In this document: positions 25,701-45,814 of the stretch, one piece after another | How positions within the stretch are numbered: position 1 is the first letter of the stretch | Layout: each line of letters opens with the position of its first letter | Source of the DNA: Elusimicrobiota bacterium | GTDB lineage: Bacteria > Elusimicrobiota > Elusimicrobia > Elusimicrobiales > UBA9959 | Assembly (NCBI GenBank): GCA_030651035.1 | Contig: JAUSCK010000042.1 | Span: 1 to 51,093, forward strand | Direction of reading: 5' to 3' | DNA length: 51,093 bases | Notes under the pieces: generated by a model | What the model saw: the letters and a program-made list of their open reading frames with translations, nothing else | The model's database searches: none | What the model was told of the DNA's origin: nothing | Program-made: the position numbers and the translations under genes

Positions 25701-27119
25701 CTATTGTTCTTCAAACGCATCAACCGTATAAGTGTAAAGCTCGACTGTTTTGTCTTTCCAGGCGTCGGCGGAGAGCCCCGCTTTCTCAAGGCAAAGCGAG
25801 GAAAGAAAATCTTCTTTCTTTTTAAAGTGCTCCCAGACCTGCGGCAGGTAAGTGCCCGACCGGCGGCCGCTTTTAACGTAAACCCCGTGCACACCCGCCT
25901 TCACCGCTTCAGCGCCTTTGACAAGCTCCAGCGGAGAAAGGACCGAGATCTCTATTTTGATCTTCTTCAGCTCGGCCTCGGAGACCCGCTCGAACCTGGG
26001 GTCCTCGAAAGCCGCGGCCCCGGCGTAGGAGGCTGCCATGTCGGCAAGCGCGGTGCGCGGCTCAAGGCTGCCTATGCAGCCGCGCAGGCTGCCGCCCAGC
26101 GTAAGCGTGACGAAGATGGCGGCTGGCTGGTTAAATTCCGGCCTGGGGCTTAAAGGCTGTACCGGGATCTTGCCGGTTTTCAGGCAGGCGCCGATGCTGC
26201 TGCGCGCCAGGGCGAGCAGCTCGCTCTTCATGGCTGGCGATAATTCAAGCGCGCCGGCGGGCTTCGGCGAGACTTCGGTGAAATATCCCGCGCCGTAGCC
26301 GACCACGGCGCTGTCGTCGCCCGAGACCTTCCCCGAATGTGTATAAAGGCCCAGTTCAAAATCGTTGCAGCCAAGCTCGAGGGCGGCGGCGGCGCCGGCC
26401 GTCATGGCGGCCTGGCCGCAGGCGGTAGTATCAAGGTACTGCGAAGCTTTTGAAAGCAGCAGTGCGTTGGCCAGGTCGAAGTAGCCGGGGCTTGAATTGC
26501 GCATGGCCTGGCGCAGGGCCAGCAGCACGGAGCGGTCCGAAATCTCGGCTATTTTTCCCGGCGGGTAGTGTGACAGGTCGGAAGAAACACAGAACAGCGC
26601 CTTGCGCCCTCTCATGGCGCGGCCAATGGCGCGGCCGGCTTCTTCAAGCAGGGCGGCGTCAGTTGAATTAAACAGGAGGGGGACTATTTTAACGGCGCTC
26701 CCCTTAATGACCTGCAGGAAAGGCAGCTGGACTTCCACGGCATGCTCGGCCTCGTGCGCGCGGGGCAGGTTCTCGAATAGTTTTTTCTCCTTGAGGAGTT
26801 CGGCGCAGAAGGCGGAATCTATCTCGACCGCTCCGAGCGGGGTTTCGAAGGAGCCCTCGGCAAGCAGTGCCCCTTTCGCAAGGGACATAGTGTGGCCGGC
26901 GGCCATTATCACAAGCGTGTCAAAATGGAGATTTTTAAGCGGGGCGAAGGCGGCGCCGGCCGCGGCCCCGGAGAAAGCGTAGCCGGCGTGGGGGGACAGG
27001 AAGCCCGCCACGCGCCCGGCGGGAAGCACCCCGGGTTTAACAAAACCTGAAACCTCCGCGCGCAGTTCTTCAGGCCGCGCCTCATAAAAGCGCCCTGCAA
27101 CAGCTGGTTTTCTTATCAT
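25701..27119 (-). CDS. AmmeMemoRadiSam protein B (MEMO1-like) fused to protein A (AMMECR1-like)
   Basis: R.PAVAG.FY, PHAGY.FSG, EHAVEVQLPFLQ, SSDLSHY, VGY; then FVTL, LRGCIG, AFEDPRF, EISVLS, YLPQV. Confidence 0.92.
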   Translation of the reverse strand: MIRKPAVAGRFYEARPEELRAEVSGFVKPGVLPAGRVAGFLSPHAGYAFSGAAAGAAFAPLKNLHFDTLVIMAAGHTMSLAKGALLAEGSFETPLGAVEIDSAFCAELLKEKKLFENLPRAHEAEHAVEVQLPFLQVIKGSAVKIVPLLFNSTDAALLEEAGRAIGRAMRGRKALFCVSSDLSHYPPGKIAEISDRSVLLALRQAMRNSSPGYFDLANALLLSKASQYLDTTACGQAAMTAGAAAALELGCNDFELGLYTHSGKVSGDDSAVVGYGAGYFTEVSPKPAGALELSPAMKSELLALARSSIGACLKTGKIPVQPLSPRPEFNQPAAIFVTLTLGGSLRGCIGSLEPRTALADMAASYAGAAAFEDPRFERVSEAELKKIKIEISVLSPLELVKGAEAVKAGVHGVYVKSGRRSGTYLPQVWEHFKKKEDFLSSLCLEKAGLSADAWKDKTVELYTYTVDAFEEQ

Positions 27120-27184
27120 ATTAGCCCTCCCCGGCAATTATACATTTGTTTTATCGCCCCGAAAAAACTAAAATAGAGCTACAC

Positions 27185-27261
27185 GGTGGTTGTAGCTCAG
27201 TGGTTAGAGCGCTCGGCTGTGGCCCGAGAGGTCGGGGGTTCAAGTCCCCTCAGCCACCCCA
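27185..27261 (+). tRNA. tRNA-His(GTG)
   Basis: G-1 GTGGTTG acceptor, CTCGG-CTGTGGC-CCGAG anticodon arm, GGTTCAAGTCC, CAGCCACC-CCA. Confidence 0.96.
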
Positions 27262-27292
27262 AAATTTAAAAAACGCCTTTTCTCCCGTTAGT

Positions 27293-27344
27293 GGCCCGAT
27301 AAAGAAGGCTTCAGCGACAGAACGCGCCGTCCGGCGCGTTTTTT
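27293..27344 (+). repeat. cassette left-end motif plus terminator hairpin (copy 1)
   Basis: GGCCCGATAAAGAAGGCTTCA identical at 37143-37163; AACGCGCC-GTCC-GGCGCGTT-TTTT hairpin. Confidence 0.8.
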
Positions 27345-27465
27345 GTTTACTTGCATTTGCCAGAATGTAGCACTATTTGTATTATTAGTTTGGCGTAATG
27401 CACAGCAAAATAATGTACTTCATTATGCTTTGTGGCGTCAGGTTAGGGGAGCCGCGATTTCTTAT

Positions 27466-28395
27466 ATGCAAACAGCCTTCTGGGGGATTGCCTTCTCTTT
27501 ATTATTGCCCTTTAGTGTGCACGCCGCCTCGACACGGAACTTATATCTCGTCTTGATAACGCGTATGGGAACAGTTGAGAACCAGTTCTGTGCGGAACTC
27601 ATATCAGATAATGGGAGGTATCTGCTTAAAAGTGAGGCGCATAAGGACATAATATTAATCCCGGAAACACCCGGGGCAATCCTTTCATCTGGAAAATATT
27701 CAGTTACATTGGAACATCAGAACCTTAAAACCAGCACGCTACAGGTGACCGCGACCATACACGGCGACAGCATAAAACTACTCAGTAAGACCCCCGTGGA
27801 CATTCTATTGGTGCAGCAGAACTGCCTAGGGGAAACGCCAATGTCCAACGCATGGAATTCGCCTTTTAGCGGCAATAACGATTCTAACGCTAAAGCTTTT
27901 CTGCGACGCATCGTAGGCAAATTTGCGGATTTCCGGACTGGCGGGGGGGATGACGGGCATAGACACGCCGGAATAGACCTCAGGGGCGGATTCGGCAAAG
28001 AAGTATACCCCATTAATGACGGCAGGGTGCTAGCCGCCTCATTCAAAGATCTATCCGGTGGGGTAGTAATAGAACATCTCCTCCCTGACGGGAGCAGATT
28101 ATATTCAAAATATGTCCATATACAGGACATTTCCGTGAAGGCAGGGGAACAGGTTACGCCCCATACCAGGCTAGGCAGGCTTTTTGACAAAGCCTCGTTC
28201 AAAAAAAGCCGATACACGCACAACCACTTACATTTGGAAATCCGGAAAGATTACGAGGATAAAGGCACCGACAGCTCATATAGAGAAACTCGCAAAGATT
28301 TGGAAAGGCATTGCTTAGACCCTGAAAAATTCCTTGGGGCACTACTCACTAAGAAACTTGCGCATACGGAACAAGGCCCCGGCGTAAGTAACTGA
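27466..28395 (+). CDS. exported M23-family metallopeptidase
   Basis: signal peptide (VHA), HAGIDL, Y.H, V..G..V....LG, HLHLEIR. Confidence 0.85.
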   Translation: MQTAFWGIAFSLLLPFSVHAASTRNLYLVLITRMGTVENQFCAELISDNGRYLLKSEAHKDIILIPETPGAILSSGKYSVTLEHQNLKTSTLQVTATIHGDSIKLLSKTPVDILLVQQNCLGETPMSNAWNSPFSGNNDSNAKAFLRRIVGKFADFRTGGGDDGHRHAGIDLRGGFGKEVYPINDGRVLAASFKDLSGGVVIEHLLPDGSRLYSKYVHIQDISVKAGEQVTPHTRLGRLFDKASFKKSRYTHNHLHLEIRKDYEDKGTDSSYRETRKDLERHCLDPEKFLGALLTKKLAHTEQGPGVSN

Positions 28396-28397
28396 GA

Positions 28398-30086
28398 ATG
28401 AATTTTATCCTTCCATTCATGCTATCTGGTATCATTCTCGCTTTCAGCGGGGTCTTCTACCAGGCGTATTATATCCCCAAACTCCTGGTTCTTTTTATCG
28501 GCAGCCTTGCTTCAGCCGGCATTCTACTTCAGCAAGAGGAACTCCGCCTACCTGCACGCAGCACGGTTCTTTTCCTGGCTGGTTATTTATTAATGTTGGC
28601 CAGCATGGCCGGGTTCTCCGGAGAACCGCGACACGCTTACATACAATTACTATATGCCATCTGCGGTTGCGCGATGTATCTGGTCACAATTAACGCTAGT
28701 GATTGCCAGAAAACAACCGCACTTAAGTTCGCCTGTGGAATTGCACTAATACAGTGTTGTTTAACAACACTCCAGTCTGTCAATGCAGTGTCATTCCTGC
28801 CAAGCGTCCTGATCCCGGTAGAAGGCCGCCTAACCGGAACCGTCGGCAACCCGGAATTTCTTGCCACACTGCTAGGGGTGTCGATACTCATCGTTTTTCA
28901 TTTACGGGATAAATCCAAAAGCGAAAAAGTCCAGATATGGCTTGCCGCGGGGGCTGCGGCGCTTTTCTTCGGAATACTTGCCATTGGGAGCAAGGGAACA
29001 TTCCTTTACCTGGCTCTTTATGGCGTATGGCGTTTTAAACGCAGCTTTAAACTGATTGCCGCCGGAGCAATGACTTTTGTCCTTCTGATGTTACTGTTCT
29101 CTCCGGCATCGGTGTTGGGCCGTGTATTTCTTTGGTTGACCAGCCTACGCATGTTCATTATGAATCCTGTCACAGGAGTAGGCCTTGGGCAGTTCGAGAA
29201 CAATTACTTGCAAACCGTACACGGGTTCTTCTCATCTATGCCGGCTGTAGCGGGATATTTTGGAAGTTATACAAGTCTTACGCAGGATGCGCACAATATC
29301 TTCCTTCAGCAGGCAGCGGAACTGGGCCTGCCGGGGCTAGGCTTCTCGCTGCTATTCTCCATCTTTGTATTTAGACGCGCCCAAGCCTTAGGGGGACATC
29401 TTGGCGCTGCCTTGTTCCTATTGCTGTATAAGAGCATGTATACAGTAATGCTCAACTCTCCGACCAGCCTGCTGTTGCTGACGCTGCTCTTGGGCTTCTC
29501 CGAAAACCTAGGGCGTCTTAGATCCATAAAAGTCAAACCGATATGGACTACAGTTTTAATACCTGCTTTCTCAGCCCTAATTCTTGCCGGAACACACCTT
29601 TGCATAGCCGACTATCACTATCAGCGCGGACTCAAAGCCGTAATGATGGGTAATAGCGCCACCGCGAAAAAAGATTTTGTAGCTGCCATCGAAATAGACC
29701 CGGAAAGAGCCGATTTGTACTTGGCGTTAGCATATCTCGACTTTCTTGCCGGAAATACCGACGAGATGAGCTTGCGTATACAACAGGCACTTAAGCGTGG
29801 AAAGAGCATGGACACATACAAGATATCCGCGCACATGTTCTTTTATAGCCGCATTTACGGCAATGCAGAGAGAATATACCGTTACATACTCTTTCTTTTT
29901 CCTGAGCATCTTACATCTATGGCAAAACTCTCGGTTATCGCCATTGGAAAGGGCGATTACACACAGGCCGTATCGCTAGCAGAAAAGATTCTCGCATTAA
30001 AGCCCAGAAGGCCCAATGCTTCGGATATCAGGAACGCGCAGATCGCAAGCGAGATAGTACACAAATACGCCGGAGGTATAAAATGA
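28398..30086 (+). CDS. O-antigen ligase (Wzy_C)-family membrane protein with C-terminal TPR-like repeats
   Basis: GTVGNPEFLA, R..LW, GVGLGQF, AHNIFLQ..AELGL.G; many TM helices. Confidence 0.82.
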   Translation: MNFILPFMLSGIILAFSGVFYQAYYIPKLLVLFIGSLASAGILLQQEELRLPARSTVLFLAGYLLMLASMAGFSGEPRHAYIQLLYAICGCAMYLVTINASDCQKTTALKFACGIALIQCCLTTLQSVNAVSFLPSVLIPVEGRLTGTVGNPEFLATLLGVSILIVFHLRDKSKSEKVQIWLAAGAAALFFGILAIGSKGTFLYLALYGVWRFKRSFKLIAAGAMTFVLLMLLFSPASVLGRVFLWLTSLRMFIMNPVTGVGLGQFENNYLQTVHGFFSSMPAVAGYFGSYTSLTQDAHNIFLQQAAELGLPGLGFSLLFSIFVFRRAQALGGHLGAALFLLLYKSMYTVMLNSPTSLLLLTLLLGFSENLGRLRSIKVKPIWTTVLIPAFSALILAGTHLCIADYHYQRGLKAVMMGNSATAKKDFVAAIEIDPERADLYLALAYLDFLAGNTDEMSLRIQQALKRGKSMDTYKISAHMFFYSRIYGNAERIYRYILFLFPEHLTSMAKLSVIAIGKGDYTQAVSLAEKILALKPRRPNASDIRNAQIASEIVHKYAGGIK

Positions 30087-31225
30087 CACAAAAGACCGCC
30101 AACATAATCGCTGTCCTTGCAATAGTCGGCCTAGCCGCAGGTTATTACCTGGCTCAGTATCGCAAATCCGGCGCTGCACCGTTCCAGCCGGCTGTCGCGT
30201 CAACTACAGCCACCACCATAAGTCAGCCGTCAGCAGAAAAGACCGCGGGGACGGCCGGACCGCTTCCCTCCGGAGACAGTCTAAGCCTGATTAGCGGGGA
30301 AACCGCGAGTCAGACCGCAATGTCTGCCGAAGGGGAATTAGATAGACCCGAGGGAATGGAGTGGTTCTATAAACGTTTCGGAAACAGCACCTGGTTCGCG
30401 GAAGGAACCTTTAATGCAAAATCTTTTACCCCGCAAGAGTATGAAACCCTTATAGCCGCTGCCTTGCAAGGCAATGAGTCTGCGACTGTAGCTTTAAAGC
30501 TTTCAATCCTAAAGTATCTAATTGAAAATCCTAAAGACGCCGAATATAAAGCGGTAAAAGAGAAACTCTACTCAGAAGAATTCCTGAAGACAGTTCCGAG
30601 GTTTGAATATCTGGCCGAAATGCTGCCAGATGAACTGCTCGACAATAAAGATTTCGCCGCTGATATCCTTGCCAAGAACCCCTATAATCTGAAATTTTTT
30701 TCCGAACGGTTGCGCTCCGATAAAGAAATTGTGTCCAAGGTTATATCAAACAACATCTATCTGCTTGAGCTTGCCTCGGACGCCCTGCGCAACGATAAAG
30801 CCTTCATAAAGGAGCTGTTGTTGAAGGATCCGACTGCCCTTAGCTATATTTCAGACGAACTCAAGGGAGATAAGGACCTGGTATTACCGGTTCTTAAAGG
30901 TCACCCGGAACTTTATTCGGCTGCGTCCTCGAAAGTCCAGAACGATCCTGAAGTACTGCCGCTTATCCGTACATTTATCCTGACTGGGGGGCGTGGCAAT
31001 GTAAGTGCGCTTCCTGAAAAACTCCGGGGCGACAGGGAAGTGGTCATGAAAGCTGTGGAAAGCAATTGCAGCTTACTGGAATCCGCATCCGTGGAACTTC
31101 GCGACGACGAGGAAGTGGTAAGTAAGGCCATCGCGCATTCGCGATATTGCCTTCAGTACGCAAGCAGCAGGCTGCGGGAAAAGCTTAAACAGCCGGGGCA
31201 GACTGGGCAAGAGGAGGTGGAGTAA
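30083..31225 (+). CDS. membrane-anchored DUF4116-repeat protein
   Basis: N-terminal TM anchor; repeated L..AS..LR.D.E.V..A units. Confidence 0.75.
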   Translation: MTQKTANIIAVLAIVGLAAGYYLAQYRKSGAAPFQPAVASTTATTISQPSAEKTAGTAGPLPSGDSLSLISGETASQTAMSAEGELDRPEGMEWFYKRFGNSTWFAEGTFNAKSFTPQEYETLIAAALQGNESATVALKLSILKYLIENPKDAEYKAVKEKLYSEEFLKTVPRFEYLAEMLPDELLDNKDFAADILAKNPYNLKFFSERLRSDKEIVSKVISNNIYLLELASDALRNDKAFIKELLLKDPTALSYISDELKGDKDLVLPVLKGHPELYSAASSKVQNDPEVLPLIRTFILTGGRGNVSALPEKLRGDREVVMKAVESNCSLLESASVELRDDEEVVSKAIAHSRYCLQYASSRLREKLKQPGQTGQEEVE

Positions 31226-31274
31226 GAAGCCGCCGCTCAGATGAGCCGTTCCCGCATCAACTCTGGCACTTTAT

Positions 31275-32444
31275 ATGAAAAGGCATTGGAAGTATACTGA
31301 CATCCCCGACAGGCTGTGGCGTGATTGGAGATGGCAGCTAAAAAACCGTTTCCATAACGGCAGCGATATCTCTAAATTCTTCCCGAACATCAGCGAGGAA
31401 TCGCGGAGGGATTTCGCAGCTCATGTGGCCAAGTTCAATATCTCGATAACGCCTTATACGCTTTCCTTGATTCGCCTGGATAAAAAACTAAATCCGACAG
31501 CAGTCGATCCGATCTGGAGACAGTTTAAATTCTTGTCGCCAGACGAACTTCGCGGCGACGGCGCTTATGACGGGGTTCACACCAACTGGGAACTTTCAAA
31601 GGAGATGCCTACCCCGATACTGCACCACAAGTATCCCGGAAGAGCGCTGCTGCGTGTAGTCAACAGCTGCCATGGGTACTGCAGCTACTGCTACCTGACG
31701 AAGCGCACCCTGGACGTTTCGAAGAAATTGCGTTTTGCCGCCTCTCCAGCAGTGTGGGAAAGGTCTCTTCGCTACCTGCGCGCCAATCCGGACATATCCG
31801 ACGTCCTGATAAGCGGCGGCGACCCCCTTCTGCTGCCGAATGACGCGCTGGAGAAGATCCTCAGCGACGTTGCCGCCGTAAGCTCCGTCAAGACTATCAG
31901 GATCAACACCAGGGCATTGACCTTTAACCCCTTCCGTGTGGACCCAGGGCTTGCCGCCATACTAAAAAAACACCGGGTGACAGTTCTTGAGATACACTTG
32001 GCCCACCCCAACGAGATTACACGGGAATTCGACTCCGCGCTGGAAGTCTTAGACAAAGGTGGATACAGGCCTCTCATACTCTGGCGATCCCCTCTGCTCA
32101 GGGGGATAAACGATTCCGTAGCGACGCTGAGGGAACTGCTGCTCATGCTTTATGCCCGCCGGATCGTGCCCTACTATCTCTTTCATAACGCCCCGTACAG
32201 CCTTGGACGGGAGTATTACGGCACCTCCGTAAAGCGCGGGATAACACTGATGAAGGAACTGCGCCGGGTGATCCCCGGGCCAAGTTTTCCGCGCTACACG
32301 CTTTTTCATCCTACCGGAAAGCAGGACATCCCGCTGGAGGCAGGTGGCACTCCGGAATTCCGCTTCTGCCGCGACGCCTCAGGAAAGCCCGCGGTAAAGT
32401 TCCGCAATTGGAGAGGCCGGTCAGTATTCTACCCGGACCGCTGA
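31275..32444 (+). CDS. KamA-family radical SAM / PLP aminomutase, divergent
   Basis: W.DW.WQL.NR, HKYP.R.L, CHGYCSYC, ISGGDPL, HPNEIT, LLRGIND, PYYLF, PTGK (PLP Lys). Confidence 0.88.
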   Translation: MKRHWKYTDIPDRLWRDWRWQLKNRFHNGSDISKFFPNISEESRRDFAAHVAKFNISITPYTLSLIRLDKKLNPTAVDPIWRQFKFLSPDELRGDGAYDGVHTNWELSKEMPTPILHHKYPGRALLRVVNSCHGYCSYCYLTKRTLDVSKKLRFAASPAVWERSLRYLRANPDISDVLISGGDPLLLPNDALEKILSDVAAVSSVKTIRINTRALTFNPFRVDPGLAAILKKHRVTVLEIHLAHPNEITREFDSALEVLDKGGYRPLILWRSPLLRGINDSVATLRELLLMLYARRIVPYYLFHNAPYSLGREYYGTSVKRGITLMKELRRVIPGPSFPRYTLFHPTGKQDIPLEAGGTPEFRFCRDASGKPAVKFRNWRGRSVFYPDR

Positions 32445-32447
32445 AGC

Positions 32448-34379
32448 ATGCCATATATCTGCAAGAATCCTTGGACAACGCTGTATATTTGGGGCAACGG
32501 GAATGTAACCCATTGCTGCTATTCCAACGTCGGCAGCCTTGGGAACATAAACGAAACGCCTTTATTGGATATTTGGCGTGGCCCTAAACTGAATTTTGTC
32601 CGTGAGAACATGGCACAGGGGAACTACCTGCAGGCCGGCTGCGAATATTTCTGCCGCTCATACCGCTGGAATAAGTTTTATGGTTCCAAAAACACGGCTG
32701 CGATCCCGGAAGGACTTGGCAGGGTTGAAGAACTGCCTCCCGCCTGGGCCGAGGACGGGCCCGGTATCCTGGGCTTCGGGATCGACTGGGATTGCAACTT
32801 GAGATGCCGCCATTGTTTATCGTCGAGAAAAGGCAAGGGAGTAAAACAAGAAGATTTCCACACTCTCCGGACTTTTACAGAGAAAAGCCGTTTTTTGCGT
32901 TTCATGGGCGGGGAATTCACGATTAACAAAGACTGCCTTTCTATGCTTAAAGAATTGGGGACGTGGGAAGCCCAGCCCATAGTTTTTTTCAGCACCAACG
33001 GACAGACACCGATAGCGTCCGTTATGCCGTATTGCGGCGGATTAAAAGGGTTGCACCTAAAGTTTTCACTGGAAGGATTGAACAGTGATTATGAACACAT
33101 ACGCACCGGAGCGTCATGGGATGTTTTCGAGCGCAACCTGGATGAGGCAGCGGCCATTTTTGTGGCCAAGCGCGCGGAGGGGAAGGACTGGCGTCTATAT
33201 CTTAACTTCTGTGTGATGAAGAGCAATTTCCGGAATCTGCCGTCCATTATTCAATACGCCGTCAAAAAAGACCTCCCGCTGGTTCTCAATACCATAAACG
33301 GGATGCGCCATATAGATGAGAATATGTTCATGTACTCCGCCGCCTGTCTTCCAAAAGAAGAAATACAACAAATTGCCGAACGTTGCAGGGCAATCCTGGG
33401 AGAAGCCCGCCAATATTGCTTTAAGAACGAACTCGTCACGCATCTGGATTATATTCTTCGTTCCGCCAATGACAAAAAACTCAGGTTGCCACACCGAGCC
33501 TTACAGTTGTGGACACTTTTTGTTAAAGGCCGCGCGGCGGACCTCTCAATGTACGCTTTCTATAGGCTCTCAATGAACCCAACCGCATTTTTATCCTATG
33601 TCTATAGGAAGATACGGGGTAAAATATCCACCCCGGCAATCAGATTCAAGACCGCGCGGAGGATCATTGCAAACACCGAGGATATTTTAAGGGGTTGGGC
33701 ATGGAATTACTCAGTAACTAAAGCAGGAAACCAGGAGGCGAACGAATTCCGGCACCGGATAGGCGAATTTCAATTGCCCATAAAGGAGCGGGGAGAACTG
33801 GGCGTTGAGAACAAGAACCGTATCTCAAATATGCGGCTGGCCTGCGAGGCTATTGATATGTTGGTATTACAGCCGGGACAGATCTTTTCGATGCGGAAGG
33901 TGATCGGTGAACCAGTAGCCCAGAAAGGATATAAACCGGGCCCCGTTATCATCAGAGGCAAACTATCCAGCTCGGTTGGCGGCGGTCTGTGCCAGATATC
34001 AACAGTGCTCTTCAACGCAGCCCTGCAGGCGAATATACGCATACTTGAAAAACACAATCACAGCGTGGACTTGTGGGGGAAAGACCGGATAGTTGAGCTT
34101 GGACGGGACGCGGCGTACACCTATGAACTGAAAGACCTGAAGTTCAGAAACGATATGGCGGCGCCGGTACTGATCCGTATTTCAGCTGACGGGGGGAAGA
34201 AACTGGTTTGTGCCGAATTGTATTGCAGCAGCCCCCTAGCCGGCGAGGTAACGGTAGAAACCCTGGCGGACGCTAAGCCGGGAGAGGTTAAACACATAGA
34301 AACACGAAGATTTATAAGAACTAACGGAAAGACGGAGTTGACCTATTCCCGGCGGGAAACATATCTTTCCCGCAGTTGA
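32448..34379 (+). CDS. SPASM-like + radical SAM + VanW-domain fusion protein
   Basis: C..PW....I...G.V..CC....GNI.....IW; CNLRCRHC, GGE, STNG; C-terminal GGGLCQISTVLFNAAL, HS, GRDA, DLKFRN. Confidence 0.8.
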   Translation: MPYICKNPWTTLYIWGNGNVTHCCYSNVGSLGNINETPLLDIWRGPKLNFVRENMAQGNYLQAGCEYFCRSYRWNKFYGSKNTAAIPEGLGRVEELPPAWAEDGPGILGFGIDWDCNLRCRHCLSSRKGKGVKQEDFHTLRTFTEKSRFLRFMGGEFTINKDCLSMLKELGTWEAQPIVFFSTNGQTPIASVMPYCGGLKGLHLKFSLEGLNSDYEHIRTGASWDVFERNLDEAAAIFVAKRAEGKDWRLYLNFCVMKSNFRNLPSIIQYAVKKDLPLVLNTINGMRHIDENMFMYSAACLPKEEIQQIAERCRAILGEARQYCFKNELVTHLDYILRSANDKKLRLPHRALQLWTLFVKGRAADLSMYAFYRLSMNPTAFLSYVYRKIRGKISTPAIRFKTARRIIANTEDILRGWAWNYSVTKAGNQEANEFRHRIGEFQLPIKERGELGVENKNRISNMRLACEAIDMLVLQPGQIFSMRKVIGEPVAQKGYKPGPVIIRGKLSSSVGGGLCQISTVLFNAALQANIRILEKHNHSVDLWGKDRIVELGRDAAYTYELKDLKFRNDMAAPVLIRISADGGKKLVCAELYCSSPLAGEVTVETLADAKPGEVKHIETRRFIRTNGKTELTYSRRETYLSRS

Positions 34380-34383
34380 TATC

Positions 34384-35448
34384 GTGCAGGAGAACTTTGT
34401 GCGCAAAATAACAAATATTGGCATCGTGCTGGAGACCAAGGCGGATGCGCTGAAAACAGGACTGCCGCTGGATCAGTTATACCATTGGCGGGAGCCGGGG
34501 GAAATAGCCGCGATAACCGGGGCAATAAAAGAACTCGGCTTTACCACAGTCATCCTTGGCACTCCGGAAGATCTGGCGGCACATCCCGTAAGCGGAGTAG
34601 ATTTCATCTTCAATCTTTCAGTAGGCTTCGTTAATCGCTATCGCCTGGCGGCGGGTCCTGCCCTCTATTCGTTGTTAAAACTTCCCTATTCCGGCGCCGA
34701 CCCGTACACGAAAATGATGAGCCAGCATAAGCACGCCATGAAGTCCTTCTGGGACAAGCTGGGCATTCCTACCCCTGAATGGGCATACATTCATACGCCG
34801 GGCGACGTGAGAGCCGCCTCACTTCCGCCGTTCCCGCTTATCCTCAAACCGGCATACGAAGGCTCCTCAATAGGGATAGATGAAAGTTCTGTAATCCATT
34901 CCAGGAAAAGTCTGCTGACAAAGGCGGAGGAGCTCTTTTCCCGCCTTAAAATGCCAATGATTGTTGAGCGGTTTATCGCCGGCCGCGAATGCAAGGTAGG
35001 AATCATCGGGAACGCTGAAACAGAGTTTTCCGGCATCATCGAGGATATCTGCGCCGATGGTAGTGGACTTGGAAAGGAGATGCTCGGCTTCCGCGTCAAA
35101 AAAGCGGGGACATACTCAAAACGGACCCTTATCGCCGGAGATGCTCTTTCGAAACGCATCATGAAGGACGCGAAAAGGATTTATGAACTGTTCCGGCCTG
35201 TAGACTACGGGACCATGGACGTGCGCGTGGACAACCGGGGATGCCATTACTTTTTGGAGTTCAACGCCGACGCGACTCTGCATCCGCAAAGGACGCTGGC
35301 ACAATGCTGCGCCTTGAACGGGGTAGATTACAGGACGATGATCGGAAAAATCCTTACAACATCCTTTAAACGGTGGGGGATCAAGCAACAGCTACCTAGG
35401 ATTAAATCCGAGGGAGCGCATCACACGGACAAATCGCGCCGGGCCTGA
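34384..35448 (+). CDS. D-alanine--D-alanine ligase-like ATP-grasp enzyme
   Basis: PYSGAD, K..MK, IPTP, PLILKP..EGSSIGI, VERFI.GRE, D.R.D....FLE.N. Confidence 0.82.
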   Translation: MQENFVRKITNIGIVLETKADALKTGLPLDQLYHWREPGEIAAITGAIKELGFTTVILGTPEDLAAHPVSGVDFIFNLSVGFVNRYRLAAGPALYSLLKLPYSGADPYTKMMSQHKHAMKSFWDKLGIPTPEWAYIHTPGDVRAASLPPFPLILKPAYEGSSIGIDESSVIHSRKSLLTKAEELFSRLKMPMIVERFIAGRECKVGIIGNAETEFSGIIEDICADGSGLGKEMLGFRVKKAGTYSKRTLIAGDALSKRIMKDAKRIYELFRPVDYGTMDVRVDNRGCHYFLEFNADATLHPQRTLAQCCALNGVDYRTMIGKILTTSFKRWGIKQQLPRIKSEGAHHTDKSRRA

Positions 35449-36543
35449 CAGGGCAAGTGCCCGGCTTGAGAACTCAAAACGGCGCAGATAGCGTTTACGA
35501 AAAGCGGTAAACGCCGCGCCCGCAGTGGGGACTTTCACTACTTCCAACTTAAATTCAGCCGAATCTTTTTCAATATCATATATCCTCCGAACAGCACCGT
35601 GAAGAACGCTGTAAAGCGTCTCTCCGGGCGAACGCACGCAGGGAAGAGGCGCGCGTCGGAGAATCGACGGATTCCAAACAGAGGGTATCCCGAAATGAGC
35701 GCATACTGCGGCGTAGATCATACAGACTGCGGCGAGCCTGGCTTCCTGAGACAGCCCGGCTACATGTGGGGTGCTGATATCGGCCAGCTCCACCAACCCA
35801 GGGTCTATGTCCGGCTCATTCTCCCAAACGTCGATGACCGCACCACCGAGCCGTCCGGACTCGAGACATTCCTTAAGTGAGCGTTCGCAGACTATCCCAC
35901 CTCTAGCGGAATTAATGATAACGGCCCCGCGTTTAAGCCCGGCCAGCCTCTCCGCACCAAACAGACCCGCGGTCTTGTCTTTACCAGTAAAGGTCAGCGG
36001 CGTATGTATTGTTATAACATCGGAATCCATCAATTTGGATAGTGGCCTGAAGGACTTATCACCGGTAGTTCTGCGCTTCGGGGGATCGTTCAGCAGGACA
36101 TTTATTCCCAAAGTTTTCGCCTTTTCCGCTACCCGGCTGCCGACATTCCCTATTCCGACAACGCCTAACGTGGCCTCAGGGATGCTTATGCGGCCCCGCT
36201 CATGAAGGGACAAGAGCGCCGCAATCACATACTCTGCTACCGATTCCGCGTTACTGCCTGGTGCGGCAGAGAAAGCGATTTCTTGGTCCTTTAAATACCG
36301 GAGGTCGATATGGTCCGTACCGGCTGAAACCGTTCCGACGAACTTTATCCTGCTTCCGGCTAAAAGTTTTTTATCGACGCGCGTCACATACCGTACTATC
36401 AGGATATCGCAATTCTTTACCGTCGCAGCAGTGATTTCGCCGCTTTCAAGCAGCCGCAACCGGCCGATTCCCTTGAAAGCGTTATAGACATGAGGGATAT
36501 TCATGTCCGCAATTACCTGTAGGATTGGTCTATGTCTTCGCAT
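35392..36543 (-). CDS. pdxB: 4-phosphoerythronate dehydrogenase-like (PdxB family D-2-hydroxyacid dehydrogenase)
   Basis: AD.NIP, FVGT..AGTDHID, APG.NA.SVAEY, GVVG.GNVG, IN..RG, DVWENEP, TPH.AG, PdxB-type C-terminal tail. Confidence 0.75.
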   Translation of the reverse strand: MRRHRPILQVIADMNIPHVYNAFKGIGRLRLLESGEITAATVKNCDILIVRYVTRVDKKLLAGSRIKFVGTVSAGTDHIDLRYLKDQEIAFSAAPGSNAESVAEYVIAALLSLHERGRISIPEATLGVVGIGNVGSRVAEKAKTLGINVLLNDPPKRRTTGDKSFRPLSKLMDSDVITIHTPLTFTGKDKTAGLFGAERLAGLKRGAVIINSARGGIVCERSLKECLESGRLGGAVIDVWENEPDIDPGLVELADISTPHVAGLSQEARLAAVCMIYAAVCAHFGIPSVWNPSILRRAPLPCVRSPGETLYSVLHGAVRRIYDIEKDSAEFKLEVVKVPTAGAAFTAFRKRYLRRFEFSSRALALSGPARFVRVMRSLGFNPR

Positions 36544-36802
36544 CGTTAATCAAAAAATAGCAGTGTTATTCCAAACTTTCCCGACTACAAATCAATTTTA
36601 ACTCTTTTCATTCTTGAAGGATATAAAATTGGGTGGCTCATTACGCTGTATCATAAATGGGCGGGGACAGATAAGCCAGGCCAGGGCGGGTGCGGCGGCT
36701 ATCCCGAGGCAAGACGCTACCGCCCTGGCCTTTCCATATTTTCTTAGCAGGTTCCGCCTCACCCGGCGGCTACAAATTAATAACAGGAAAGACCGCCGCG
36801 GA

Positions 36803-37069
36803 GGCCGCAGCAGCGGACGCCGGGGCGGTGTTTTATAATTTTATGGTGCCACCGGTGTCAGTTAAAATAGATAACAGCAACAAGCCCGCGCCGCGAGAGG
36901 CAGCAGCCACTGGCGAGCGCGGACAGAGTCTGTAATGATAACAGTTCGATTCTTTGCAGCGTGCGCGGGGAATAATTTTCTGCTTTGTTTAAGCCCGGGA
37001 CTCCTTCGCTACAATGTTTCCTCTGGATGTTGGGTGAAGCAGGTTCGCAATTCGGCCTGGAAGGCACCC
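36803..37069. repeat. cassette right-end repeat (copy 1)
   Basis: 37/38 identity over 36803-36840 vs 38617-38654; 33/34 identity over 37036-37069 vs 38783-38816; middle block also aligns. Confidence 0.9.
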
Positions 37070-37142
37070 CAAATTTCGAGTTTCCTGTTTTTCCCCGAGG
37101 CGGCCGCTGCCGCAGAATTAAATTTCCGCAAAACCTATTACG

Positions 37143-37193
37143 GGCCCGATAAAGAAGGCTTCAAAAATAAGGCACGCCTAATGGCGCGTTTTT
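37143..37193 (+). repeat. cassette left-end motif plus terminator hairpin (copy 2)
   Basis: GGCCCGATAAAGAAGGCTTCA, then GGCACGCC-TAAT-GGCGCGTT-TTT. Confidence 0.8.
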
Positions 37194-37223
37194 AATTTTT
37201 CCGGCAACCGCTAGATACCGTCC

Positions 37224-37252
37224 TTGACAACTAAAACGGATAAAGATAGTAT
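37224..37252 (+). promoter_or_regulatory. putative sigma70 promoter of the cassette 2 gene
   Basis: TTGACA-17 bp-TAGTAT, followed by AGGAG RBS and ATG 37280. Confidence 0.55.
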
Positions 37253-37279
37253 CCCTTTTGTCATGGCAGGAGAAGAGAA

Positions 37280-38482
37280 ATGAGAATTGTAATACGCTTG
37301 TTTTCAGCAATAGCGGCTGCGGCATTATGCCAGGCGCTCCTCTGCGCCGAGGCCAGGGCGGGCGAGCTGGACGTACGCATGGTGAAGGTAGTAAAGACCT
37401 TTACACGCTCAGCCGCGGAAACGGGGCTCAGCACCGCCACGCTGGCAGTTATGCCGTTCAAGACGGACAAGAAGCTGGCGGAGAAACGGGTGGACTACGC
37501 CTGCGGCGAGATCCTGACCAACAAGTTCGTAGTGACCCATACGTTCAAAGTGGTGGAGAGGGCGCAACTGGATACCGTCTTGAAGGAACAGGCCCTGGGA
37601 GCCGGCGGCGTTACCGAAAGCGCCACGGCGGCGAAACTGGGCAAGCTGCTTGGCGCCAGGCTGGTGATAATCGGCAGTGTCTCGCGGCTGGGCGATTCCT
37701 ACCACCTTAGCACGGAAATGGTGGACGCTGAAAGCGGGGAAATACTGGCTTCCGACGTTACCGAAGTAGAGACCGCAACTTTCGACGAAGACGCCGGCAG
37801 ATACCTCGTTCTTGTGCCTAATACGCAGGCTATAGGTATGTACCTGGCGGGCTTTTCGGCCCCGGTAAGAATGTCCGTACCGGCGCCGTTCACCGCTCCG
37901 GGCGGAAAGGTAGTAACTCCTTTGAAGAGTTCCATGAACCTGCTGGGAATAGGCGGCGGCGTGCGCTATTCCCCGTGGACCTCCTGGACAATGGACCTGA
38001 TGATCCTGGCTCATCTTGAGATCTCGCCGGACGCGGCTGCGTTCTCGGTGAATTCAACCGAACCGAGAGCGCTAACCGCCTGGCGGGCGGACGGCCCCAG
38101 CGCCAGGTTCACGGTCAACAAGACTTTCGCGCTTTCCAGGAAGTTCTCTTTATTCACCGGGGCCGGGGCAACCATGTTTAGCCTGAACAACAAGAATACT
38201 ACCGACAGCGGGTCCAATGATTTCGACTATGACGACGGCACCTTGAAAATAAAAATGGACCAGATGAAAGGTTCCGAGATCACGCCCACGGTCCGCGTCG
38301 GCCTAGAATGGCGCCCCAAAGAACGGTTCGGGATCTCCCTGTTCGGGAACTACGACCTTTCCCCCAAGACGATCAAGGAGACCGCGACAGTCCTCTGGAC
38401 GGGCCACCAGGAGACCGTAACGATGCGCAAGATAACGTTCCCGCGCTTCTACCCGGACGCGTCCATGTCGCTGTATTTCTAG
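37280..38482 (+). CDS. CsgG/HfaB/FlgO-like domain fused to probable outer-membrane beta-barrel
   Basis: signal peptide; AV.PF, F.VVER.QL..VL.EQ, A.KLGKLLGA..VI.GSV, VD.E.GEIL; amphipathic strands ending in terminal SLYF. Confidence 0.78.
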   Translation: MRIVIRLFSAIAAAALCQALLCAEARAGELDVRMVKVVKTFTRSAAETGLSTATLAVMPFKTDKKLAEKRVDYACGEILTNKFVVTHTFKVVERAQLDTVLKEQALGAGGVTESATAAKLGKLLGARLVIIGSVSRLGDSYHLSTEMVDAESGEILASDVTEVETATFDEDAGRYLVLVPNTQAIGMYLAGFSAPVRMSVPAPFTAPGGKVVTPLKSSMNLLGIGGGVRYSPWTSWTMDLMILAHLEISPDAAAFSVNSTEPRALTAWRADGPSARFTVNKTFALSRKFSLFTGAGATMFSLNNKNTTDSGSNDFDYDDGTLKIKMDQMKGSEITPTVRVGLEWRPKERFGISLFGNYDLSPKTIKETATVLWTGHQETVTMRKITFPRFYPDASMSLYF

Positions 38483-38616
38483 CGCCGCAGACATTGACCC
38501 CGGAAGTCAGTTTTCAGCTGCAGGCGGACGGCAACAGTTTTAATTGCAAAGACATCTTCAACACACTGGGTATTAATCTTCAGATAGGCAATAAGGCGGA
38601 CCAGGGCGTGGGCAGC

Positions 38617-38816
38617 GGCCGCAGCAGCGGACGCCGGGGTGGTGTTTTATAATTATACGGTGCCACCGCAACAACACATAAGATTGATAACAGCTCGATT
38701 CTTTGCAGCGCGCGCGGGGAATAATTTCTGCTTTGTTTAGTGCGGGACACCTTTGCTAAACCGGATCTTCAGGATGTTGAGCGAAGCAGGTTCGCAATTC
38801 GGCCTGTAAGGCACCC
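38617..38816. repeat. cassette right-end repeat (copy 2)
   Basis: aligns with 36803-37069 apart from a ~65-bp indel. Confidence 0.9.
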
Positions 38817-38833
38817 TTCCCCTTTATAGTCTT

Positions 38834-38868
38834 TATAAAACCCTCGATTAACCTTCGTGGGTTTTATA
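38834..38868 (+). terminator. hairpin just beyond the last CACCC core, possibly the displaced native tRNA-His terminator
   Basis: TATAAAACCC-tCGA-ttaacct-TCGt-GGGTTTTATA. Confidence 0.55.
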
Positions 38869-38969: not shown

Positions 38970-39716
38970 ATGAACATGGAAACCTTTAAAAACATATTAA
39001 TTATGTTCGGCGCGATCTTCATCCCGCTGGCTACCATAGGCGTCGGGCTCGGCTGGTATTACGCTGAAGGCAGCCCGGCGCTTGTGGGCCAGACACTACT
39101 CCTCCTGCTTGCGGTGGTATTTGCGCTGAAAAGAAACTTCGCCGCAATGGGCCTTTACCTGGCCGGTATTCTGTTCCTTATGGTGGTGTATCCAAAACTG
39201 GAAGATTTCGAATCTTATGCCAGGGAGGGCCGGATGGCAGGGCAGTTCAGCGAGCTTCGTTCGCGCCTTGCCGGTATAAAAACGGCCGATGGGTCATATC
39301 CAGGCACTATCACCCAGGTTCCGCCGCCGCTCAAATTGAGGAGCGGGCACAAGAACACTTCCGCCATAGATACGGTGCGGCTGCCGGACGAGGCCTATCT
39401 TTACCCTCCGCAAATACCGGCCGGAGAAAAGCTGCGGGTAACCCTCAGGCAGGAGGGCACGAACCGGGAACAAAGCTACACCTGGAGCGGAGATAACAAG
39501 CAGCCGCTCCTGCTGTACCCTGGCGGAACTTATTTTTACGAGATCCGCCGCGAAAGCCCGGCCGCGCTAGTTTCCAGCGGCACAGTGAAGGTGCCGGTGC
39601 CGCCTGACTTTAACGTCGACAGCGGCAAATACGCATACGACCGGACCCATGGGCACTTTTTCATTAACTGCACCCACACAGGGAAGCAGCAAAGGGCTCC
39701 CTGGTGGGAGCGTTAG
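38970..39716 (+). CDS. membrane protein with GspG/pilin-like C-terminal domain
   Basis: 3 TM helices; LR......G.YP, GH..T, DSG.Y.Y, G....NCTH motifs shared with 46603..47250. Confidence 0.6.
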   Translation: MNMETFKNILIMFGAIFIPLATIGVGLGWYYAEGSPALVGQTLLLLLAVVFALKRNFAAMGLYLAGILFLMVVYPKLEDFESYAREGRMAGQFSELRSRLAGIKTADGSYPGTITQVPPPLKLRSGHKNTSAIDTVRLPDEAYLYPPQIPAGEKLRVTLRQEGTNREQSYTWSGDNKQPLLLYPGGTYFYEIRRESPAALVSSGTVKVPVPPDFNVDSGKYAYDRTHGHFFINCTHTGKQQRAPWWER

Positions 39717-39915
39717 CGCCGGACTTTTATTGATCTGCCTGGAGCAGGCAGCCATTGCGAGTCCCGCGCATGGGGACCTGCGGCCTGTGAACTGCAGCCC
39801 GCGCTATATCATATGCGGTGCGCGAAATTGATTCTTTACGGCTCATTTGCCATAATCTGCTTATGTCTCTAATGATAGTAAGCCCCGTCGCCGGCGAACG
39901 CCAGGTTTCGATATA

Positions 39916-42042: not shown

Positions 42043-42069
42043 AAACCGCCGATCTTCAAAGGAGAATCA

Positions 42070-42576
42070 GTGATTAAGAAATCCACACTGGAAGCGCAAA
42101 GAATTATCGCCATAATGATCATGCTGGCCGTTCTGGCCACCGTTGCGGCCTTCGCCGGGCAGGTGCATGTCCAGATAGCCAACGCCAAGCTCAAGAAATC
42201 CCCGCAGTGGTTCGCCGCCACGGTCGCCGAGCCGGCCCTTGACGATACCCTCGAGGTCCTTAAGACGACCGGCGACTGGTACCAGGTCAAGGCAGACGAC
42301 ACGACCGGCTGGATACACAAAAGCGCCGTGACCGCCAAGAAAGCGAAAAAGAGCCGCGCTTCCTCGGTCGGCTCCTCGCAGACCTCTGCCGACGACATCA
42401 CCCTGGCCGGCAAGGGCTTCAACGAGCTGGAGGCTGGCTACCGCAAGAGCGGAGAGACCGTTAATCTTGAGGCGATAGACGCCATGGAGGCGCGCTCGGT
42501 GGACGAGGCCAGGCTGCTGTCATTCCTGCGCAAGGGCGCGCTGCTGCCCAAGAGCGCCAAAAGGGGGAAGAAATGA
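42070..42576 (+). CDS. exported SH3-domain protein
   Basis: signal peptide; GDWYQV....GWIHKSAV; TLAGKGFN. Confidence 0.72.
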   Translation: MIKKSTLEAQRIIAIMIMLAVLATVAAFAGQVHVQIANAKLKKSPQWFAATVAEPALDDTLEVLKTTGDWYQVKADDTTGWIHKSAVTAKKAKKSRASSVGSSQTSADDITLAGKGFNELEAGYRKSGETVNLEAIDAMEARSVDEARLLSFLRKGALLPKSAKRGKK

Positions 42577-43613
42577 TCATCCATTCCATCCTCCTTCTCT
42601 CCATGCTGGCCGGGCAGCCTTCCGCTTCGGCCAGGGGGTTCGGCGACGTACTGAACAAGATCGGGGACATCGGCAAGAGCGTCACGAAGAACAAAGAAGC
42701 CTCCGCGCCGCAGGACGAGGATCCCGAGGAAGCCGCGGCTCAAAAAAAGGACGCGACCCTCGGCAAAGCGCTTAAAGGCCTCGGGGTAGGCGGCGAGGCG
42801 GTCGACGGCATCCAGAAGTCGCTGGGGTTCAGCCGCCGCACCAAGAAGGCCGCCGAAAGCACGCGCGACCTTGATCCCTCCGACGAGCGGCAGATCGGCA
42901 GGGTCGTTGCTGCGGAGATCCTCTCCAAATACAGCCCGCAGGACGACGAGGGCCTTAACGATTACGTGCAGACGGTCGGCCAGGCTGTCGCCATGGCCTC
43001 GGACCGGCCGCAGACCTTCAGCGGCTACCATTTCCAGGTACTCGACTCCCAGGAGGTCAACGCCCTCTCGATACCCGGCGGGTTCATCTTCGTCACCAGG
43101 GGGATGCTGCGCCTGGTGGAGAGCGAGGACGAGCTGGCCTGCGTGCTCGCGCACGAGGTGGCCCACGTGGCCCTCGGCCACGGCTCCGAGGCGATCGTCA
43201 AGGCGCGGCGCCTGAAAGCCGGCCTCGGCATAGCCGCGGACGCGAGCAAGACCTACGGCAGCAAAGCCTCCGGCAGGGACCTGGCCGCGCTGCGCGGCGA
43301 CGTGAAGGCGGTCATGGAGATCCTTATGCGCACCGGCTACGGCCACGGCAAAGAGTTCGAGGCCGACGCCAAGGGGGCGCTTTACGCCCAGCGGACCGGC
43401 TACGACCCCGCGGCCATGGCCGCGGTCTTGAGAAAGCTCGAGTCCTCGTCCGCGTCGCAGGGCGGCTTCCTCAAGACCCACCCCGCGGCCGGCAAGCGCG
43501 CCGGGCAGCTGGAGGAAGCGGCGCTGGAACCGCCGGCCTGGTACAGAGCGTCAAAGACGCGGGACACGCGTTTCGCCTCCGCGCTCGCTGCGCTCGGCGG
43601 TTCAGGAGAGTAA
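42573..43613 (+). CDS. M48-family zinc metalloprotease
   Basis: VNAL..PGG.IFV.RG, ELA.VLAHEVAH, EFEAD, GYDP, THP. Confidence 0.9.
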   Translation: MIIHSILLLSMLAGQPSASARGFGDVLNKIGDIGKSVTKNKEASAPQDEDPEEAAAQKKDATLGKALKGLGVGGEAVDGIQKSLGFSRRTKKAAESTRDLDPSDERQIGRVVAAEILSKYSPQDDEGLNDYVQTVGQAVAMASDRPQTFSGYHFQVLDSQEVNALSIPGGFIFVTRGMLRLVESEDELACVLAHEVAHVALGHGSEAIVKARRLKAGLGIAADASKTYGSKASGRDLAALRGDVKAVMEILMRTGYGHGKEFEADAKGALYAQRTGYDPAAMAAVLRKLESSSASQGGFLKTHPAAGKRAGQLEEAALEPPAWYRASKTRDTRFASALAALGGSGE

Positions 43614-43636
43614 GCCCGGATCCAAGGAGAGCTGAA

Positions 43637-44425: not shown

Positions 44426-44440
44426 AGGGCGGCCGCAGCT

Positions 44441-45145: not shown

Positions 45146-45255
45146 TCAATATTTCCGGCTGGCATGAAGCCTCCCTTATGTTCAATATCCAGTTCACCTT
45201 ACTCCTGGTCTTCCTCCCGCTTTCACCGGCGCGGGCGTCGGATTTACAGCGGCTC

Positions 45256-45531: not shown

Positions 45532-45814
45532 AACTCCGCCTCTTCCTGTTCATAGTCTACCAGCGGGAAATTAAGGAAAGGCCAGAAAATTATCAAATTT
45601 CAGTCAAATGTAGCCGGTTGCCCTCCGATACAGACCGGCTTTTGATCCGATGCTGGTCGCCCATCAGAGGTTCAACTTCTTTTGAACACGTCGAAGACGC
45701 GCCCGCCCTTTCTTTACGCGAAGCACCGGAACGATAACCCCGCTGACGAGTTCCCCGCTGTAAGGAGATAATGCCGCTTATTTTCTCGCAGCTATTATTA
45801 CTATAATTATCTCA

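Follow-up and report, generated by a model that had tools for sequence, protein, structure and literature searches.

Probable degraded serine-recombinase islands stacked at a tRNA-His gene of an Elusimicrobiota bacterium

How do gene clusters with repeated ends come to stand in a row behind a tRNA gene when no recombinase lies among them? We analyzed such a locus in a 51,093-nucleotide (nt) stretch of DNA (the window) from an Elusimicrobiota bacterium (GenBank assembly GCA_030651035.1, contig JAUSCK010000042.1, positions 1 to 51,093, forward strand), where two sets of genes follow tRNA-His(GTG), each between a left (L) end and a right (R) end. An earlier note, made from the sequence alone, had described them as a dedicated family of recombinase-free cassettes that accumulate in integron style. 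We put a probability of about 0.7 on another reading, namely, two degraded islands, stacked at tRNA-His, of one family that a large serine recombinase (LSR) inserts at the 3' ends of tRNA and transfer-messenger RNA (tmRNA) genes in a single Elusimicrobia family. The earlier interpretation is partly supported, and the biology appears more ordinary than an integron-like system. Below, G000 denotes the window's own genome, Gnnn:Cn a genome and contig, a bare Cn a contig of G000, and Lnnn a related locus.

Junctions and ends in the window

Three junctions delimit the units, J1 (27259/27260), J2 (37069/37070) and J3 (38816/38817), and CACCC stands at all of them, at 27255-27259 as the end of the acceptor stem plus the discriminator of tRNA-His and at 37065-37069 and 38812-38816 as the last bases of the first and second R ends. 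J1 lies within the last bases of the tRNA, and the first island starts directly at its 3' end. The pentamer had been taken for the only sequence common to the junctions, which proved too narrow; J1 and J2 have CACCCCAAA in common and then continue into related flanks, and J3 departs from J2 exactly after CACCC. The 28 nt after tRNA-His at J1 resemble the recombinase arm of two related loci (L058 and L061), and the 66 nt after the first R end at J2 are nearly identical to the tRNA-His/LSR flank of two others (L071 and L055).

The ends themselves were as the earlier note had described them. Both L ends hold the 21-mer GGCCCGATAAAGAAGGCTTCA, present in exactly two copies in the window (27293 and 37143; 0/100 shuffles gave two matches), and a GGCGCGTTTT hairpin comes after each of them. 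In the terminator scan, the first hairpin was called terminator-like, and the second, an imperfect one, received a call on the minus strand only. The R ends have three blocks in common (36798-36854/38612-38668, 91% identity; 36936-36978/38685-38727, 95%; 36989-37069/38736-38816, 81%), the matches of 37/38 and 33/34 reported for them are visible in the sequence comparison, and both finish in GCAGGTTCGCAATTCGGCCTG.AAGGCACCC. The hairpin beyond the third junction was seen at 38838-38868, where the terminator scan made no call because the loop is longer than 8 nt. Pfam found no recombinase or transposase domain in the 8 open reading frames (ORFs) between the ends, tblastn with the LSR gave no match in the window's contig, and the two cargoes are unrelated to each other (Pfam).

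Recombinase islands in related genomes

The Memo/AMMECR1 gene adjoins tRNA-His in 22/22 related loci holding the tRNA and, with the genes left of it, forms a flank that is colinear in relatives. Just downstream of the tRNA and convergent with it, 10 of the 22 loci have an ORF of ~500 amino acids (aa) with the Pfam domains Resolvase, Recombinase and Zn_ribbon_recom, which identify it as an LSR. Its nearest solved relatives are SPbeta SprA (YokA) and the A118 integrase (phmmer, E about 1e-6, catalytic domain). The LSR was found in 36/40 other genomes of the genus, with 1-9 copies each, and among 30 LSR loci retrieved, 26 have a tRNA that overlaps or adjoins the 3' end of the gene (Ser-GCT, Ser-CGA and Glu-TTC, five each; Ser-TGA and Asp, three each; Glu-CTC and His, two each; Ser-GGA, one). 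Recombinases of the Ser type are 92-93% identical to each other and those of the His type 78%; identity is 72% between His and Asp types and ~55% between the tmRNA type and the rest.

These genes belong to islands of a canonical order, which is best described with the R end as a unit (here, the end module). In relatives, the end module is ~750-800 nt long and non-coding, starts near GGGTGGGTCATTA.GC.GTATCATGAATGGGCGGG, and ends with a hairpin and then a tRNA-like CCGCCA or CACCCCA; we divided it into a 5' module M1 (~360 nt), a middle module M2 (about 250-300 nt) and a 3' block M3. The canonical order is the tRNA, the LSR facing it, an inverted M2M3, 3-30 kb of cargo and a full end module pointing outward. 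The inverted partial module (from model position ~384) precedes the LSR in 16/17 loci with at least 250 nt upstream, mostly with an antisense remnant of LSR residues ~458-501. The full order stands on one contig in G021:C3, C4, C5, C11, G020:C42, G041:C5, G019:C41, G052:C47 and G007:C27 and is less complete in G021:C6, G048:C27, G042:C11, G004:C78 and G012:C33; as an exception, the end module and LSR of L094 are convergent.

The last 9-35 bases of the full end module are those of the 3' end of the tRNA at the island's other side. In a His island (L111), the left attachment site (attL), the internal copy and the right attachment site (attR) all have CACCCCAAA, in agreement with the crossover core that had been placed at CACCC; in a Ser-CGA island (L106), all three have CTCCGAACTTTTT. 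The common core is CCCCGCCAAATTTT..GGAATTTGGCA in an Asp island (G041:C5), and the module end that matches the tRNA is TCCGCCAGTT in a Ser-TGA island, where the neighboring tRNA-Ser-CGA follows the end module, as the native flank would. Beyond this point, the sequences at the tRNA and at the internal copy stay alike (the recombinase arm), and the full end module gives way to unrelated flank. Attachment sites attL and attR and an internal attP-like copy would look like this, with the crossover predicted at or next to the RNA 3' end. The reading frame of the His-type LSR crosses the core and stops in the tRNA acceptor stem, ending in FEIWGG.

Applied to the window, this order suggests how the array arose. 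An LSR would integrate an island at the extreme 3' end of a tRNA or tmRNA gene; J1 would be attL-like (tRNA joined to recombinase arm), J2 attP-like between the islands (end module joined to recombinase arm), and J3 attR-like (end module joined to native flank). Both islands would since have lost their LSR, leaving short LSR remnants, a diverged piece of the LSR (the L module) and a hairpin. That an LSR made these very junctions, and the order in which the islands arrived, we infer from the likeness to the intact islands.

Four LSR loci were found in the window's genome, at tRNA-Ser-GCT, at tRNA-Ser-CGA, as an unplaced fragment on a short contig and as a copy at tmRNA disrupted by an insertion sequence. 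At the last of these (G000:C173, 9507-15379), the tmRNA encodes the tag ANSNEMAWAHA followed by a stop, an insertion of ~3.5 kb with inverted ends interrupts the LSR next to the tmRNA 3' end, and the upstream partial end module and the tmRNA both end in CCTCCACCAATTTGGAG. Elsewhere, the contig of L063 (DAIENX010000037.1) is palindromic, with Memo and tRNA-His twice, inverted around one LSR gene; either an inversion of the LSR segment between inverted repeats of ~125-150 nt or an assembly fold-back would account for it.

Origin of the L ends

The antisense strand at J2 (recombinase arm plus L module) aligns to LSR residues 468-496, reading LSGP, two stops and VLRKFNSAAAAASGKNRKLEIWG opposite LSFPWEKLQNFNAAAAAAKGEKAIFEIWG of the LSR; the C-terminal end of the LSR in this comparison reads LSFPWEKLQNFNAAAAAAKGEKAIFEIWGG followed by a stop. 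The LSR remnants in the window comprise 11 codons at J1 and ~24 codons at J2, and tblastn found none in the right flank of J3 (TTCCCC...). In antisense, the L ends are thus an LSR C-terminus with stops and unequal deletions, and therefore point to recombinase-bearing islands. They appear, from these alignments, to be the decayed last 100-150 nt of LSR genes, trimmed to different extents, and the units would therefore be degraded autonomous islands rather than members of a dedicated cassette family. The L-end hairpins are predicted terminators that would now end RNA reading in from the left. By eye, the L-module tails of L062 and G017 also carry LSR codons. Two other roles considered for the L module were rejected: a crossover at the boundary between hairpin and L module does not fit L111 and L106, in which attR diverges straight after the core, nor an L module that is LSR coding sequence, and the latter also ruled out a native tRNA-His trailer.

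It was on the standardized ends that the earlier note had based its dedicated, non-autonomous cassettes, never carrying a recombinase, mobilized in trans and collected integron-style at one tRNA. Several observations agree with such cassettes: the L module and terminator are kept as a unit in end-module tails in at least five other genomes and on three other contigs of the window's genome, different genes follow each such unit, the arrangement is tandem in 5/7 testable places, and att arms are retained on both sides of the core. We nevertheless consider them unlikely. Besides the stops and unequal deletions in an LSR C-terminus, the same cargo occurs in an LSR-type island of G042 (see below), each unit comes with a promoter-like site and one comprises seven genes on two strands, the family uses many tRNAs, and the cognate LSR was not found in the window's genome. 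The family does have a recombinase, an LSR, which relatives encode at this very site in 10/22 loci.

Locus and cargo in relatives

The interval between tRNA-His and surE is hypervariable, at 4.6-7.3 kb in L054, L059, L062 and L065 versus 18.5 kb in the window. Together with the LSR at so many of these loci, this bears out tRNA-His as a hot spot of site-specific integration. In two relatives (L054 and L072), the sequence at the end of tRNA-His reads CAGCCACCC followed directly by TT, with the CCA not encoded, which is how the empty site had been predicted to read. None of the window's ORFs between 27343 and 45574 was found in L054, L059, L062, L065 or the other related intervals, except for a homolog of the M23 gene in L051.

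Genes 1-4 of island 1 encode an M23 peptidase, a Wzy_C/TPR membrane protein, a DUF4116 protein and a radical SAM protein, and genes 5-7 a SPASM-radical SAM-VanW fusion, a D-Ala-D-Ala-ligase-like ATP-grasp protein and, on the minus strand, a PdxB-like 2-hydroxyacid dehydrogenase (Pfam); they may form a cell-envelope or peptide-modification cluster. Two of these genes were searched for among the 43 genomes of the genus: the SPASM-radical SAM-VanW gene occurs in 3, the window's included, and close PdxB-like orthologs occur in the same 3. G042:C11 carries, in this order, an inverted M2M3, an XRE-like gene, all seven island-1 genes in the order of the window (76-89% aa identity), 5.7 kb of further sequence and a full end module. 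On G017:C20, the last three island-1 genes are followed by an end module, 4.9 kb and surE. In L051, tRNA-His is followed by a fused palindrome in place of the LSR, an inverted piece of the end module, an XRE-like gene and the M23 gene. With the same seven genes in G042, three in G017 and M23 in L051, island 1 is therefore an accessory unit present at this site in few genomes and elsewhere equipped with a recombinase end.

By eye, the small XRE-like helix-turn-helix gene lies between the inverted partial end module and M23 at ~620-860 in L163 (G042:C11) and at ~7700-7930 in L051; the window has no such gene, its place being taken by the L module together with ~95 nt that are unrelated. At 14843-15105 in L163, between the PdxB-like gene and the full end module, lie a minus-strand tRNA-Phe(GAA) called by ARAGORN and, beside it, a 64-nt end-module fragment, and this may be a further junction. 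The single gene of island 2, encoding a CsgG/LpoB-like lipoprotein, belongs to a multicopy family with 6 matches in the window's genome; in the other 42 genomes, the best hit reaches 46% identity.

Tandem units and present-day mobility

The unit of L end, cargo and R end also exists with other cargoes and in tandem, as had been proposed. End-module tails with an LSR remnant and L module were found on C271, C226 and C260 of the window's genome and in five other genomes, and the genes after them are all different. Where enough sequence follows, a second end module, often partial, lies on the same strand after 1.5-15 kb in 5/7 places (the window, C260, G019:C41, G020:C4 and G016:C65; absent from G023:C46 and C271). 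On G019:C41, an LSR island is followed by an LSR-less unit, the same pattern as proposed for the window.

Sequencing reads bear on both the assembly and its mobility. Only in the probable source sequencing run do contigs cover the region; these independent contigs together account for the entire stretch, with a single one running through J2 (36025-38644) and overlapping ones bridging J1. Twelve further runs contain small shares of the region, of which X2, X6 and X7 were examined; X7 has contigs over 27293-30456 and 31895-33468 at ~91% identity. The joints listed connect 27271 to 36803 (side 21) and 36932, 36934 or 36949 to 38700 or 38703 (sides 22-28, some with extra letters between). These short-sided joints most plausibly come from other end-module copies or from other organisms and give no evidence of excision. 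Mobilization in trans is unproven, and any present-day mobility is hypothetical; the LSR clades differ by target and none of the His type was found in the genome, and trans-mobilization would therefore need cross-reactivity or an incoming element.

The source-run contigs also leave chance similarity or an assembly artifact barely credible. The bin is indeed a fragmented one, with 320 contigs and many breaks inside copies of the end module, and the contig of L063 is palindromic around its LSR; against these stand motifs that never arose in shuffles, the tiling across J2 and J1 and the same architecture in dozens of independent assemblies.

Distribution of the end module

A search of the window's genome with 36600-37200 returned 24 matches on many contigs, and iterated nhmmer, followed by a query of full length, raised this to 40 hits across 28 contigs, with many of the hits at contig ends. 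The end module occurs in 38/42 other genomes of the genus, 14/22 genomes of the family and, within the sensitivity of BLAST, 0/279 genomes of the phylum's other families. The R end had been tied to tRNA-His, which did not hold, as it is found genome-wide and at islands in at least 8 tRNA species plus tmRNA. The form without M2, as in copy a of the window (M1 at 36628-36988, 3' block with att arm at 36989-37069), also occurs in another genome (L143). The related genomes of this group are Elusimicrobia/Elusimicrobiales metagenome-assembled genomes, mostly from groundwater. The window's bin (G000) is 4.47 Mb in 320 contigs, whereas most members of the genus with at least 79% completeness have 2.2-3.6 Mb; it has more end-module pieces than any other genome, and many of its contigs break inside them. 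M2 alone (~270 nt) occurs in many copies on G041:C15 (596-631 kb) and G053:C51 (49-108 kb), including inverted pairs 13-16 kb apart and at least 5 copies in 60 kb.

Such numbers invite the thought that the end module is simply a multicopy non-coding RNA gene or dispersed repeat, its two copies in the window being products of local duplication, homologous recombination or gene conversion, and the second cassette no separate island. Copies a and b are closer to each other (81-95% in the common blocks) than to other copies in the genome (70-80%), both lack M2 and copy b is truncated; pieces of many kinds are scattered, often as fragments, and M2 alone is repeated many times in some genomes. A mere repeat would nevertheless hardly lie outward at the far end of LSR islands on at least 9 contigs, with terminal bases that vary with the targeted tRNA, nor would duplication readily leave an LSR remnant at J2 exactly where the recombinase of an incoming island would be, or a J3 that splits from J2 precisely after CACCC. 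We regard this origin as quite improbable.

The end module as a candidate structured RNA

Folding of 30 distinct M1 copies with RNAalifold gave 66 pairs. Standard pairs filled 98.1% of the cells, versus 38-44% with the partners slid by 1-3 columns; 9 pairs changed on both sides (2-3 when slid), as did 47 cells (2-7 when slid), and the covariation score was reached by 0/500 shuffles. The reverse strand folded more weakly (-85 versus -108 kcal/mol). At columns 303/345 of alignment A1, C,C changes to A,A together in the same 5/30 sequences (CGCGCC...GCGCGGG versus CGAGCC...GCGAGGG), which is not a Watson-Crick exchange and could reflect a non-canonical pair or shared ancestry.

The end module had no match among 4227 Rfam families, GOLLD and ROOL included, at E up to 1-5; cmscan with permissive filters over 26000-40000 of the window and 14 related loci with full-length copies gave tRNAs and terminator-like chance hits only. 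No RNA run is listed among the sequencing runs that contain the region. Three other identities were rejected. A small ORF in M2 has a Shine-Dalgarno-like GGAGG and an ATG, but its indels do not come in threes, and the GGAGG lies within a covarying hairpin. A leader of the upstream or downstream gene is at odds with neighbors that differ at each copy; moreover, among the loci of CsgG paralogs in other genomes, only 1/13 has a piece of the end module. A tmRNA- or tRNA-like gene was suggested by a 5' GGGUG that can pair with the 3' CACCC and by a T-loop-like GGTTCGAA; ARAGORN calls nothing, and the tRNA likeness is better explained by an att arm that resembles a tRNA arm.

Transcription of the end module most likely yields a structured RNA that stops at the att core. 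A wider proposal is tentative, and we hold it rather doubtful: the end module would be a new class of large RNA (~750-800 nt), a hallmark of serine-recombinase islands that runs outward through the att site with its 3' end a tRNA-like att arm, and the RNA, or the two inverted att-bearing copies, would help to control integration, excision or expression of the recombinase.

Weighing of the evidence

Several points weigh against the stacked islands that we favor, or against the RNA proposed with them. For the window's genome, the reads showed no excision product, circle or empty site, and the His-type LSR was not found in its 96%-complete assembly. Island 2, one gene with a truncated end module, could have arisen by local rearrangement and not by an insertion of its own. 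The recombinase and the island of G042 are on two contigs (Memo, tRNA-His and a His-type LSR stand at the end of G042:C26), and their join is therefore a putative one. Two tRNA-His loci with an L-module tail (L056 and L062) have no end module within 9.8 kb downstream. In Asp-type islands, identity runs ~35 nt beyond the tRNA. Finally, predicting the structure on this strand biases the excess of G-U over A-C in the end module (84 versus 9 in M1; 173 versus 7 at full length).

Set against these are observed features, namely, the canonical order of islands in related genomes, the cores that match, the remnants of the LSR at J1 and J2, the common cargo and the variable locus, and stacked, degraded LSR islands remain our preferred account.

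Features of the window

The features are collected in Table 1. No ORF of the variable-zone remainder was found in the related tRNA-His loci; one of these ORFs, at 39916-42042 and past the region described in the earlier note, encodes a fusion of a CHASE2 sensor with an adenylate/guanylate cyclase domain.

Table 1. Features at and around the tRNA-His locus of the window.
Feature	Coordinates	Strand	Evidence or remark
Memo/AMMECR1 fusion gene	25701..27137	-	Pfam; conserved left flank of the locus
tRNA-His(GTG), CCA encoded	27186..27261	+	ARAGORN, Rfam; target on the attL side
28-nt remnant of recombinase-side arm (P')	27260..27287	+	Antisense GEKAFFKFWGG and stop, as the His-type LSR C-terminus
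L module 1 (21-mer 27293-27313) and terminator-like hairpin (27319-27342)	27288..27345	+	Apparent decayed LSR 3' coding region
Promoter-like site before island-1 operon	27357..27385	+	TTGCCA-17-TATTAT, 10/12; consensus match only
Island-1 cargo, 7 ORFs	27343..36543	Both strands	Pfam
End module (ELEMENT) copy a (R end 1)	36628..37069	+	nhmmer, alignments
66-nt P' remnant with palindromic hairpin	37070..37135	+	Antisense as the last ~24 residues of the His-type LSR
L module 2 (21-mer 37143-37163) and imperfect terminator hairpin	37138..37198	+	
Promoter-like site before island-2 gene	37224..37252	+	TTGACA-17-TAGTAT, 10/12; consensus match only
Island-2 cargo, CsgG/LpoB-like lipoprotein	37280..38482	+	Pfam
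End module (ELEMENT) copy b (R end 2)	38612..38816	+	5'-truncated, from model position ~217; without M2
TTCCCC... flank with hairpin, candidate native tRNA-His trailer (B')	38817..38868	+	Unlike any LSR arm
Variable-zone remainder	38970..45574		248-aa ORF, CHASE2-adenylate/guanylate cyclase, metallophosphoesterase, unnamed ORFs
surE, conserved right anchor	45815..46573	+	Pfam

Comparison with known systems

The array is not a new principle, because islands that stack at tRNA genes and include decayed members without a recombinase are well known. In Streptococcus, integrative elements accrete with recombinase-less cis-mobilizable elements (CIMEs), and in staphylococci, Ccr serine recombinases build composite arrays of staphylococcal cassette chromosome (SCC) elements at the 3' end of rlmH (orfX). 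Both stand in tandem at one att site and have lost the recombinase and kept the att sites, and their movement in trans has been proposed or shown. Short identity at the junctions, as in the window, is typical of serine recombinases. Unlike CIMEs and SCC elements, the family described here targets the 3' ends of tRNA and tmRNA genes, has an LSR frame that crosses the att core and has an RNA-like right end.

Integron cassette arrays likewise consist of serial, recombinase-free units with repeated ends at one site. They lie beside the tyrosine recombinase gene intI, and their attC sites are imperfect palindromes of 57-141 bp. The integron comparison of the earlier note fails on these grounds: the window's units can be multigenic (one has seven genes, on both strands), they have promoter-like sites of their own, and no site of attC size was seen. 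The region between the units is ~570 nt long and homologous to the 800-nt end module plus an LSR gene remnant, which is not of the attC type. As for IntI, no recombinase domain was found in the ORFs flanking or inside the array, the rest of the genome not having been scanned for it. The recombinase itself has a three-domain build in common with SPbeta SprA (YokA) and the A118 integrase, from which it is very distant; both are phage integrases with non-tRNA targets.

Tycheposons, as far as the source at hand describes them, are cargo-carrying integrative elements of Prochlorococcus that target a small set of tRNAs; newcomers push older elements deeper, and the remnants left behind are decayed, with incomplete tRNAs and broken integrases; 27/937 use a large serine recombinase (bioRxiv 10.1101/2020.12.28.424599). 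By this described behavior, they resemble the window's islands in their tRNA targets, stacking, decayed remnants and LSR minority. They differ in phylum and in hallmark genes, mostly tyrosine integrases and replication modules; no replication genes were seen in the island cargo examined here. The available portion of the source describes no structured 800-nt end module and no inverted internal att copy.

What is new is a coherent and abundant family of LSR islands in Elusimicrobia, at the very end of at least 8 tRNA species and tmRNA, with a recombinase reading frame across the att core and two end-module copies per intact island, one of them inverted beside the recombinase. Its many natural att variants would be useful for studies of target choice by serine integrases. 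The conserved, covarying end module of ~800 nt, which matched no described RNA family, is the part most worth pursuing and a concrete, testable candidate for a large, functional RNA connected with site-specific recombination. In the portion of the literature consulted, GOLLD and ROOL (PMC5737381) are, like it, large, supported by covariation and tied to mobile DNA beside tRNA genes. The end module differs from them in having no Rfam match, in its confinement to one Elusimicrobia family in the genomes searched, in its modular build and in a 3' end that is an att site. If the proposed RNA class exists, it would place an RNA component in a serine-integrase system and might offer a clue to why GOLLD and ROOL lie beside tRNAs in mobile DNA.

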